This document shows positions 1 to 2,537 of a stretch of DNA of 2,537 bases, in pieces. Source of the stretch: Escherichia coli (GTDB lineage: Bacteria > Pseudomonadota > Gammaproteobacteria > Enterobacterales > Enterobacteriaceae); the NCBI RefSeq assembly GCF_003334385.1, contig NZ_QOWN01000099.1; one strand, 5' to 3'. Position numbers and translations under genes: made by a program. Position 1 is the stretch's first letter, and each line of letters starts with the position of its first letter. Below the pieces are notes generated by a model. The model was not told the DNA's origin and did no database searches. It saw only the letters and a program-made list of their open reading frames with translations.

Positions 1-1908
1 CGGACGCTGACGCTCGACCGTGAAATCACGCTGCCATCCTCCGGTACCACGCTGATAAGCCTGGTTGACGGAAGTGGCAATCCGGTCAGCGTGGAGGTTC
101 AGTCCGTCACCGACGGCGTGAAGGTAAAAGTGAGCCGTGTTCCTGAGGGTGTTGCTGAATACAGCGTGTGGGGGCTTAAGCTGCCGACGCTGCGCCAGCG
201 CCTGTTCCGCTGCGTGAGTATCCGTGAGAACGACGACGGCACGTATGCCATCACCGCCGTGCAGCATGTGCCGGAAAAAGAGGCCATCGTGGATAACGGG
301 GCGCACTTTGACGGCGAACAGAGTGGCACGGTGAATGGTGTCACGCCGCCAGCGGTGCAGCACCTGACCGCAGAAGTCACTGCAGACAGCGGGGAATATC
401 AGGTGCTGGCGCGATGGGACACACCGAAGGTGGTGAAGGGCGTGAGCTTTATGCTTCGCCTGACCGTGGCAGCGGACGACGGCAGTGAGCGGCTGGTCAG
501 CACGGCCCGGACGACAGAAACCACATACCGCTTCAGGCAGCTGGCGCTGGGGAACTACAGGCTGACAGTCCGGGCGGTAAATGCGTGGGGGCAGCAGGGC
601 GATCCGGCATCGGTATCGTTCCGGATTGCCGCACCGGCAGCGCCTGTCACTATTGAACTGATACCGGGGTATTTTCAGATAACGGCGGTCCCGAAACTGG
701 CTGTATATGACCCGACGGTGCAGTTTGAGTTCTGGTTCTCGGAAAAGCAAATTATTGATATCAGGCAGGTTGAAACCAGCGCGCGTTATCTTGGTACGGC
801 GCTGTACTGGATAGCCGCCAGTAGCAATATTAAGCCGGGTTATGATTATTACTTTTATATCCGCAGTGTGAACACCGTTGGCAAATCGGCATTCGTGGAG
901 GCTGTCGGTCGGGCGAGCGATGATGCGGAAGGTTACCTGGATTTTTTCAAAGACAAGATAACCGAATCTCATCTCGGCAAGGAGTTGCTGGAAAAAGTCG
1001 ACCTGACGGAGGATAACGCCAGCAGACTGGATGAGTTTTCGAAAGAGTGGAAGGACGCTAACGATAAATGGAATGCCATGTGGGGCGTCAAAATTGAGCA
1101 GACCAAAGACGGCAAACATTATGTCGCGGGTATTGGCCTCAGCATGGAGGACACGGAGGAAGGCAAGCTGAGCCAGTTTCTGGTTGCCGCTAACCGTATC
1201 GCGTTTATTGACCCGACAAACGGGAATGAAACGCCGATGTTTGTGGCGCAGGGCAATCAGATATTCATGAACGACGTGTTCCTGAAGCGCCTGACGGCCC
1301 CCACCATTACCAGCGGTGGCAGTCCTCCGGTATTTTCCCTGACATCAGACGGAAAGCTGACCGCTAAAAATGCGGATATCAGTGGCAGTGTGAATGCGAA
1401 CGCCGGGACGCTCAACAATGTCACGGTAAATGAAAACTGTACGATTAAGGGCATGCTGGAGGCGACTCAGGTCAGAGGTGACTTCGTTAAAGCTGTATCC
1501 AAATCATTTCCGAAACAGGCTGGTACGTGGGGTAATACGGAAACACCAAACGGGACGGTTACAGTCACCATCAGCGATGATCATAACTTTGACCGTCAAA
1601 TCATTATTCCGCCCATTATCTTTAACGGAATAGCGTATAGCGATCCGGGAAGTGGTAATAACCCGGGAGGTACAAGATACACGGGGTATGGTTTTGAAGT
1701 TCGCAAAAACGGTGTATTAATCGCATCCAGAGAAACTAAAGGGGCCATTCCCGGTAGCTACAGTGCGGTTATTGATATGCCGAGTGGCAGGGGAAGCGTC
1801 ACTCTGGAGTTTAAGGTTTTCCATAAAGGCAATCAGCGGGCAGGTAATATCACCGACTGTACGGTGATTGTGACCAAAAAAGCCGCTTCCGGCATCAGTA
1901 TTCGTTGA
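1..1908 (+). CDS. J: Phage tail-tip central fibre / host-specificity protein J, C-terminal ~636 codons (5'-partial; the gene starts upstream of the window)
   Basis: Frame +1 is open from nt 1 to the TGA at 1906-1908. The GTG at 91 reported by the ORF track is internal, since the frame has no stop upstream of it. The translation contains two fibronectin-III-like beta-sandwich segments (e.g. ...[27 protein letters not shown]... and ...[23 protein letters not shown]...). It also contains a segment (...[69 protein letters not shown]...[13 protein letters not shown]...) that I recognise as characteristic of lambda-family J proteins. It ends ...[10 protein letters not shown], whereas lambda J as I recall it ends ...KKQALGISVV. 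Its position immediately upstream of lom matches lambda genome order. Confidence 0.9.
346..915 (+). other. Two tandem fibronectin type III-like (Ig-like beta-sandwich) domains within J (approx. 346-630 and 631-915)
   Basis: Each ~95-aa segment has the alternating hydrophobic beta-strand pattern with a conserved Trp/Tyr core and ends with a Pro/Ala-rich linker ([12 protein letters not shown] at the first boundary). Boundaries are approximate and read by eye from the translation. Confidence 0.45.
1459..1908 (+). other. C-terminal receptor-binding domain of J (distal tip, host-range determinant); allele appears divergent from lambda
   Basis: In lambda-family J proteins the last ~150 aa form the receptor-binding domain. 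Here this segment (...[149 protein letters not shown]) keeps recognisable anchor motifs (DDHxFDRQI, IDMPxGRG, GIS at the terminus) but differs at most other positions from my recollection of lambda J. Hand-counted GC is ~46% in 1501-1620, against ~62% in 1-120. Confidence 0.5.
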
Positions 1909-1929
1909 AATTGTTATAACCCATATAAG

Positions 1930-1956
1930 GGCACCAGAAATGGTGCCTTTTTTATT
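1930..1956 (+). terminator. Rho-independent (intrinsic) terminator downstream of J
   Basis: Perfect 7-bp inverted repeat GGCACCA (1930-1936) / TGGTGCC (1941-1947) with a GAAA tetraloop (1937-1940), followed immediately by TTTTTTATT (1948-1956). It lies 22 nt after the J stop codon. Confidence 0.6.
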
Positions 1957-1966
1957 GCAGAAAAGC

Positions 1967-1972
1967 GAGAGG
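1967..1972 (+). promoter_or_regulatory. Shine-Dalgarno / ribosome-binding site for lom
   Basis: GAGAGG at 1967-1972, 5 nt upstream of the ATG at 1978; purine-rich and appropriately spaced. Confidence 0.6.
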
Positions 1973-1977
1973 TAATT

Positions 1978-2049
1978 ATGCGTAAACTTTATGCCGCCAT
2001 TTTTTCCGCAGCCATTTGTCTGGCCGTATCCGGTGCGCCTGCATGGGCA
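1978..2049 (+). other. Sec signal peptide of Lom (24 aa, predicted cleavage AWA|SE)
   Basis: N-terminal basic residues (MRK), a hydrophobic core ([14 protein letters not shown]) and an A-x-A signal-peptidase I site (PAWA) before the mature sequence SEHQ. Confidence 0.75.
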
Positions 2050-2537
2050 TCTGAACATCAGTCCACGCTGAGCGCGGGGTATCTTCATGCCTCGACGAAC
2101 GTTCCCGGCAGCGATGATCTGAACGGGATTAACGTGAAATACCGTTATGAGTTTACGGACACACTGGGGCTGGTGACGTCATTCAGCTATGCAGGAGACA
2201 AGAATCGCCAGCTTACCCGTTACAGCGATACCCGCTGGCATGAAGATTCCGTGCGTAACCGCTGGTTCAGCGTGATGGTGGGGCCGTCTGTGCGCGTGAA
2301 TGAATGGTTCAGCGCGTATGCGATGGCGGGTGTGGCTTACAGCCGTATTTCGACTTTCTCCGGGGATTATCTCCGCGTAACTGACAACAAGGGGAAAACG
2401 CACGATGTGCTGACCGGAAGTGATGACGGTCGCCACAGCAACACGTCTCTGGCGTGGGGAGCTGGCGTGCAGTTTAACCCGACCGAATCCGTGGCCATTG
2501 ATATTGCTTATGAAGGCTCCGGCAGTGGTGACTGGCG
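1978..2537 (+). CDS. lom: Lom outer-membrane protein (Ail/Lom/OmpX/PagC family 8-stranded beta-barrel), 3'-partial; runs off the window edge
   Basis: ATG at 1978 preceded by the SD. Hand translation gives [186 protein letters not shown]..., which matches my recollection of bacteriophage lambda Lom almost residue for residue. No stop occurs before the window end, which is why the ORF track omits it. The position directly after J is as in lambda. Confidence 0.92.

Follow-up and report, generated by a model that had tools for sequence, protein, structure and literature searches.

A terminator-type hairpin at the 3′ end of phage gene J in Escherichia coli, probably an element of the J module and not of lom

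The 69-nt spacer between the tail-tip gene J and the outer membrane protein gene lom carries, at positions 1927-1956, what is most probably an intrinsic (Rho-independent) terminator-type hairpin with its U-tract, located at the 3′ end of J and forming part of the J module in lambda-like phages of E. coli, not of lom. From the sequence comparisons presented here, we assign this reading a probability of about 0.8. The structure has the anatomy of a terminator, is more stable than its shuffled counterparts, exhibits covariation in its stem, occurs independently of lom and is accompanied by no promoter consensus. The window, i.e. the whole stretch of 2,537 nt that was analyzed, contains the features given below. 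An earlier note on this DNA had placed the 69-nt spacer, the hairpin with its T-tract, the SD and two promoter-like hexamers at coordinates which all proved correct on direct reading of the sequence.

1-1908, plus strand: tail-tip host-specificity gene J, 3′ part, phage 434 type; the ORF runs to 1908, with stop codon TGA at 1906-1908
1909-1977, plus strand: J-lom spacer, 69 nt, between the J stop (1906-1908) and the lom ATG (1978)
1905-1910, plus strand: TTGAAA, the -35-like hexamer of the earlier note, overlapping the J stop codon; CTGAAT in most relatives
1914-1922, plus strand: TTATAACCC, a near-invariant motif between the J stop and the hairpin, kept in nearly all of the ~165 contigs compared, with or without lom
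1923-1928, plus strand: hypervariable segment adjoining the 5′ side of the stem, ATATAA in the window; it holds most of TATAAG (1924-1929)
1927-1950, plus strand: stem-loop of 10 pairs, from terminator scan, folding and compensatory changes
1948-1956, plus strand: T-tract TTTTTTATT (T6ATT), the putative terminator U-tract, invariant in 30 distinct variants; the lom/stf module junction lies directly 3′ of it
1957-1977, plus strand: lom-specific leader GCAGAAAAGCGAGAGGTAATT (21 nt), found only where lom comes next
1967-1972, plus strand: SD GAGAGG, 5 nt before the lom ATG; an RBS is annotated in the phage 434 record
1978-2537, plus strand: lom, Ail/Lom/OmpX-family outer membrane protein, 5′ part; it runs off the end of the window

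The ORF ending at 1908 comprises the C-terminal 635 residues of J and matches the NCBIfam family lambda_TipJ over profile positions 503-1163 (E = 0); the phage 434 record labels the equivalent gene central tail fiber J. The lom ORF matches Rck (3.8e-28) and OmpX (4.6e-25) of NCBIfam, both under the curated cut-offs, and its relatives are annotated either as Lom or as Ail/PagC/OmpX. In a BLAST search of phage records, the 301 nt of positions 1800-2100, which include the end of J, the spacer and the start of lom, matched phage phi458 at 100% and phage 434 at 99.7% identity. On the basis of this identity and of the identities of the two genes, the window represents the J-lom junction of a 434-type lambdoid phage. 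An antisense ORF of 123 aa (1717-2088, minus strand) extends across the end of J, the spacer and the start of lom; given its overlap with two genes that are well supported, it is probably spurious.

The core of the hairpin consists of GGCACCA (1930-1936) paired with TGGTGCC (1941-1947) around a GAAA loop (1937-1940), i.e. seven pairs, five of them G-C and two A-U. The base of the stem is extended by G1929-U1948, A1928-U1949 and A1927-U1950 to a total of 10 pairs, and T6ATT begins directly after the core stem. On the same strand as J, the distance from the J stop is 18 nt to the stem and 21 nt to its core. The terminator scan recovered the structure at 1927-1950 with a 10-pair stem, a 4-nt loop and a TTTATT tail, although this loose scan taken alone yields a chance-level number of sites for the window (3, versus 2.1 ± 1.4 in shuffles). 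Folding is more discriminating: the hairpin with its tail has a free energy of -15.2 kcal/mol versus -4.8 ± 2.2 in shuffled sequences (z = -4.7), none of the 200 shuffles was as stable, and the spacer as a whole folds with a z score of -3.05. The hairpin and T-tract which the earlier note had seen at 1930-1956 are thus real, as judged by this stability and by the compensatory substitutions in relatives described below. The characteristics of an intrinsic terminator are found together in this element: a G+C-rich stem (usually ~5-14 pairs) with a short loop (3-8 nt), a U-tract immediately 3′ of the stem, stability, a position after the stop codon and compensatory changes. Rfam, searched at permissive thresholds, gave no match anywhere in the window. 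A bidirectional terminator was considered and rejected; read on the minus strand, the stem precedes CUUAUAUGGG and was not called by the scan, and its fold reaches -12.1 kcal/mol (z = -2.4).

The spacer is widely distributed. About 200 phage records carry it at 83-100% identity (BLAST), and, of 5426 complete E. coli genomes, 4315 (~80%) contain a close megablast match to a 121-nt stretch that runs from the J end through the spacer into the start of lom, with a median of 2 and a maximum of 12 copies per genome. The junctions compared were taken from viral contigs, more than 120 of the J-lom type and 45 of the J-stf type (~165 contigs), from which 40 distinct upstream variants were tabulated and 30 distinct variants were aligned. 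The segment at 1923-1928 varies strongly among these relatives (ATATAC, AGATAC, CAATAC, AGAAC, ATAAC, CAATAAA and others). The stem itself exists in three main states, namely GGCGCCA/TGGCGCC, which is the commonest, GGCGTCA/TGACGCC, and GGCACCA/TGGTGCC, the state of the window. These are connected by G-U intermediates, and the few remaining variants each have a single mismatch.

Two pairs of the stem are changed on both sides in the alignment of 30 variants, amounting to 11 cells in addition to the G-U intermediates. Pair 1933-1944 is G-C in 24 variants, A-U, as in the window, in five and G-U in one; pair 1934-1943 is C-G, as in the window, in 21, U-A in six and U-G in two. Overall, 89.7% of the cells are paired, compared to 34-61% when the partners are slid, and the covariation score was reached by none of 500 shuffles. 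The number of independent compensatory events is nevertheless small, since the sequences compared are close relatives (~85-100% identical). In five contigs (L038, L044, L076 and two more) the loop is inverted, the equivalent of 1937-1940 reading TTTC in place of GAAA, while the stem GGCGCCA/TGGCGCC and the T-tract are unchanged. The loop sequence is therefore not the conserved property, and the change resembles what inversion of the entire hairpin would give.

Several rearranged or divergent junctions were also observed. In the viral contig IMGVR_UViG_2537561977_000017 (L090, 4600-6090) an IS4-like insertion sequence with a 336-aa transposase-like ORF lies within the J-lom hairpin; its ends read TAATGCC... 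and ...GGCATTA, and the hairpin top CACCAGAAATGGTG is present on both sides of it as a 14-bp target duplication. In phage PhiR63_2 (L188, 4177-4445) a premature stop truncates J 267 nt before its usual end; the 3′ remnant of J and the hairpin are kept, followed by stf. The cryptic Rac prophage of E. coli K-12 MG1655 (L187, 3390-3483) has lost the spacer and hairpin by deletion; its annotated ynaA, a J-like remnant, overlaps lomR, which is itself split by IS5. More distant J homologues, those of Salmonella SPN3UB (8-nt spacer) and Serratia Swain, have no hairpin after them; the hairpin is therefore no general requirement of J genes.

The hairpin is an ordinary, very widespread and already known terminator structure. 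The phage 434 record (OL657226.1, 18940-18966) annotates a terminator whose sequence is identical to 1930-1956 of the window, and the phage Ayreon record (MF807953.1, 18454-18494) annotates one that corresponds to about 1919-1959, a longer span in which the hairpin is identical and a single difference lies near the start of the spacer; both annotations are computational, the records carrying no experimental note. Phage lambda presents the same layout in its J-lom spacer (NC_001416, 18904-18964): the J stop, a hairpin with a GNRA loop, TTTTATT, an A-rich leader, the SD GAGAGG and the lom ATG. Its spacer, however, is 61 nt long compared to 69 nt in the window, and its stem is different and weaker, consisting of CGTCCG-GGAA-CGGGCG with 6 pairs, including one G-U (-9.7 kcal/mol), followed by TTTTATTAT. 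Neither lambda record (NC_001416, J02459) annotates a terminator at the J-lom spacer. Known small RNAs were rejected as identities for the spacer: LPR1/PreS, LPR2 and 6S of lambda map elsewhere, 24B_1 of Phi24B lies downstream of lom, and the multicopy EHEC sRNA HnrS/EcOnc10-12 is encoded upstream of the genes for packaging and the head.

The question of which module owns the hairpin is addressed by junctions that do not contain lom. Phages ev207, ev017 and 1W, together with the 45 viral contigs, have the order J-hairpin-stf, and these junctions keep the J end, TTATAACCC, the hairpin and T6ATT, after which TGTGGAGTGA(G/A)T-ATG of stf follows. Where lom is present, divergence begins exactly after TTTTTTATT, with GCAGAAAAGCGAGAGGTAATT-ATG. 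Since the same hairpin and T-tract occur in 45 contigs devoid of lom, the hairpin is an element of the J end and not a lom leader. In phage 434 the gene order is J, hairpin, lom, a second terminator and stf. This second terminator, which follows lom and lies outside the window, reads AGCCCGCC-GGTTCA-GGCGGGCT-T6 and is stronger than the J hairpin (-18.2 kcal/mol). The late tail-fibre gene stf consequently lies beyond both hairpins. The stf leader of phage 434 (L001, 2279-2342), GTGGGGGGAAT-ATG, is homologous to the leader which follows the J hairpin in lom-less phages.

The terminator of lom and the homologous stf leader in phage 434 together define both ends of the lom cassette. The cassette comprises a 21-nt leader with an SD, the ORF and its own stronger terminator, all inserted exactly behind the T-tract. 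The G+C content is 0.43-0.49 over the 3′ end of J and climbs to ~0.55-0.58 within lom. Such an arrangement recalls the morons, extra genes that carry a promoter and a terminator of their own and lie inserted between two genes of a phage (Juhala et al. 2000; reviewed in PMC3594210). Like them, lom is an extra gene between J and stf, which are neighbours in related phages, and it has its own downstream terminator and a higher G+C content. It differs in lacking a recognisable promoter, whether in the 21 nt or in the whole 69 nt upstream, where a non-canonical promoter is nevertheless possible.

The function of the element may be considered in the context of the lambda late operon. The earlier note had proposed that the hairpin might be a terminator that the late, Q-antiterminated polymerase reads through, and this is still the best-supported reading: its canonical anatomy, its covarying stem and its position after J and before either lom or stf all agree with it, while termination in vivo, Q read-through and insulation are functions that we infer from lambda biology and from the order J-lom-stf(-tfa). 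In the prophage, unmodified RNA polymerase coming from within the silent tail genes would mostly stop at the U-tract, at ~1950-1956. Such a stop would insulate the downstream genes and leave a hairpin-protected 3′ end. During lytic growth, the Q-modified polymerase would continue past the J hairpin, lom and the lom terminator into stf and tfa. It is established that, with Q, terminators throughout the lambda late operon are read through, a point restated in bioRxiv 10.1101/2023.05.14.540688. The nearest known counterpart is tR′, the Q-overridden late terminator of lambdoid phages downstream of pR′, which likewise has the anatomy of an intrinsic terminator inside a unit with distal late genes (here stf and tfa). 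It is, however, promoter-proximal and experimentally characterised, whereas the J hairpin is distal and its termination and read-through are what we infer.

A stable, conserved stem inside a transcription unit that needs read-through for stf and tfa might also act mainly as an RNA 3′-end barrier or processing product, shielding the J-proximal late mRNA from 3′ exonucleases. This role is compatible with the terminator reading; as the main one it is possible but unlikely. An invariant T6ATT after the stem is needed for termination and not for blocking exonucleases, and the variants with an inverted loop keep the T-tract on the same side.

The expression of lom in lysogens bears on how efficient the terminator would be. 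Production of Lom has been reported in lysogens of lambda (PMC1151598, PMC7067206) and of Phi24B, where the level resembles that of induced cells (PMC3342100); in one array study lom went undetected, and its promoter was described as little known (PMC2147009). No mapped start site was found in the literature on lom transcription, where the phrase “lom promoter” turns up in a single paper, as something uncharacterised. That Lom should be made in lysogens is awkward for an efficient terminator with no promoter downstream of it. With what looks like a good terminator 21 nt ahead of the ATG and with no promoter consensus, expression of lom in lysogens implies either that the terminator is leaky or that an unrecognised or non-canonical promoter is at work. 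The sequence by itself cannot decide between leak-through and such a promoter, and we agree with the earlier note that the start site of lom is not to be resolved in this way. One speculative and rather unlikely extension is that lom has no promoter at all and is expressed in the prophage only from weak, cryptic transcription arising inside J and leaking through the terminator. The hairpin would then set the level of Lom, as in a terminator-gated moron, and TTATAACCC would modulate it, for example by pairing with the SD.

A more distant alternative, also raised in the earlier note, is that the hairpin is mainly a 5′-UTR structure of the lom mRNA, acting as a 5′ stabiliser or translational modulator, with lom transcription starting just upstream. 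Just 21 nt indeed separate the hairpin from the lom ATG, ACCC (1919-1922) is placed by the MFE fold of the spacer in a weak predicted pairing with the lom SD region (G1969 and GGU 1971-1973), and Lom is made in lysogens (PMC1151598). As a primary role this is nevertheless disfavoured and very unlikely, since the identical hairpin precedes stf in 45 junctions that have no lom, and nothing lom-specific precedes the end of the T-tract. There is, moreover, no promoter-like site upstream from which such an mRNA could start, and a U-tract placed directly after the stem is a feature of terminators and not of 5′ stabilisers.

A promoter within the spacer was suggested by two hexamers, TTGAAA (1905-1910) and TATAAG (1924-1929), which are present as letters and lie 13 nt apart, as the earlier note had stated. 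The spacer between the sigma-70 hexamers is usually ~16-18 nt long and functional at ~15-19 nt, and the T at -7 is near-invariant. That the two hexamers form a sigma-70 promoter for lom overlapping the terminator is highly improbable: although TTGAAA agrees with the -35 and TATAAG with the -10 consensus at 5 of 6 positions each, their 13-nt spacing lies outside the working range of sigma-70, TATAAG has no T at -7 (it ends in G, and the conserved TATAAC in C) and occupies the most variable part of the spacer (TATACG, GATACG, AATACG, AGAACG, ATAACG or AATAAA in relatives), and TTGAAA is replaced by CTGAAT in most relatives.

Broader searches for a promoter gave the same picture. A consensus scan found no plus-strand promoter anywhere in the window, and within 1895-1971 no A2/T6 -10 hexamer has a usable -35. 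On a rough sigma-70 PWM, with frequencies after the classic compilations, the best site with its -10 at 1840-1970 reached at most 3.3 bits, compared to 13.4 for pR and 9.9 for lac on the same scale. Since 99.7% of shuffles of 1801-1980 score as high as or higher than the best site of the region, the region is if anything depleted of sigma-70 sites, and the below-shuffle score also leaves the hexamers unsupported as a promoter. The only better PWM site, TTTATT-17-AATTAT (6.0 bits), is placed such that the transcript would begin only after the lom ATG. The spacers of lambda and of EHEC-type phages are similarly poor in sigma-70 sites. A PhoP box or a sigma-S -10 at ~1912-1929 was considered and rejected; by eye, the matches are weak, and they fall within the variable segment. 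The only sigma-70 consensus match in the window is TTCACA-16-AATAAT (845-872, minus strand, 10/12), which is antisense inside J, and a single minus-strand match is within chance expectation (2.0 ± 1.5). The spacer therefore has no recognisable sigma-70 promoter, such that the long-assumed “lom promoter” cannot be read off the hexamers.

The present analysis thus describes a structure which alone is of little importance, being a routine intrinsic terminator already called by annotation pipelines. For the organization of lambda-like phages, it shows where the J module ends on its 3′ side and at precisely which point the lom cassette is inserted.
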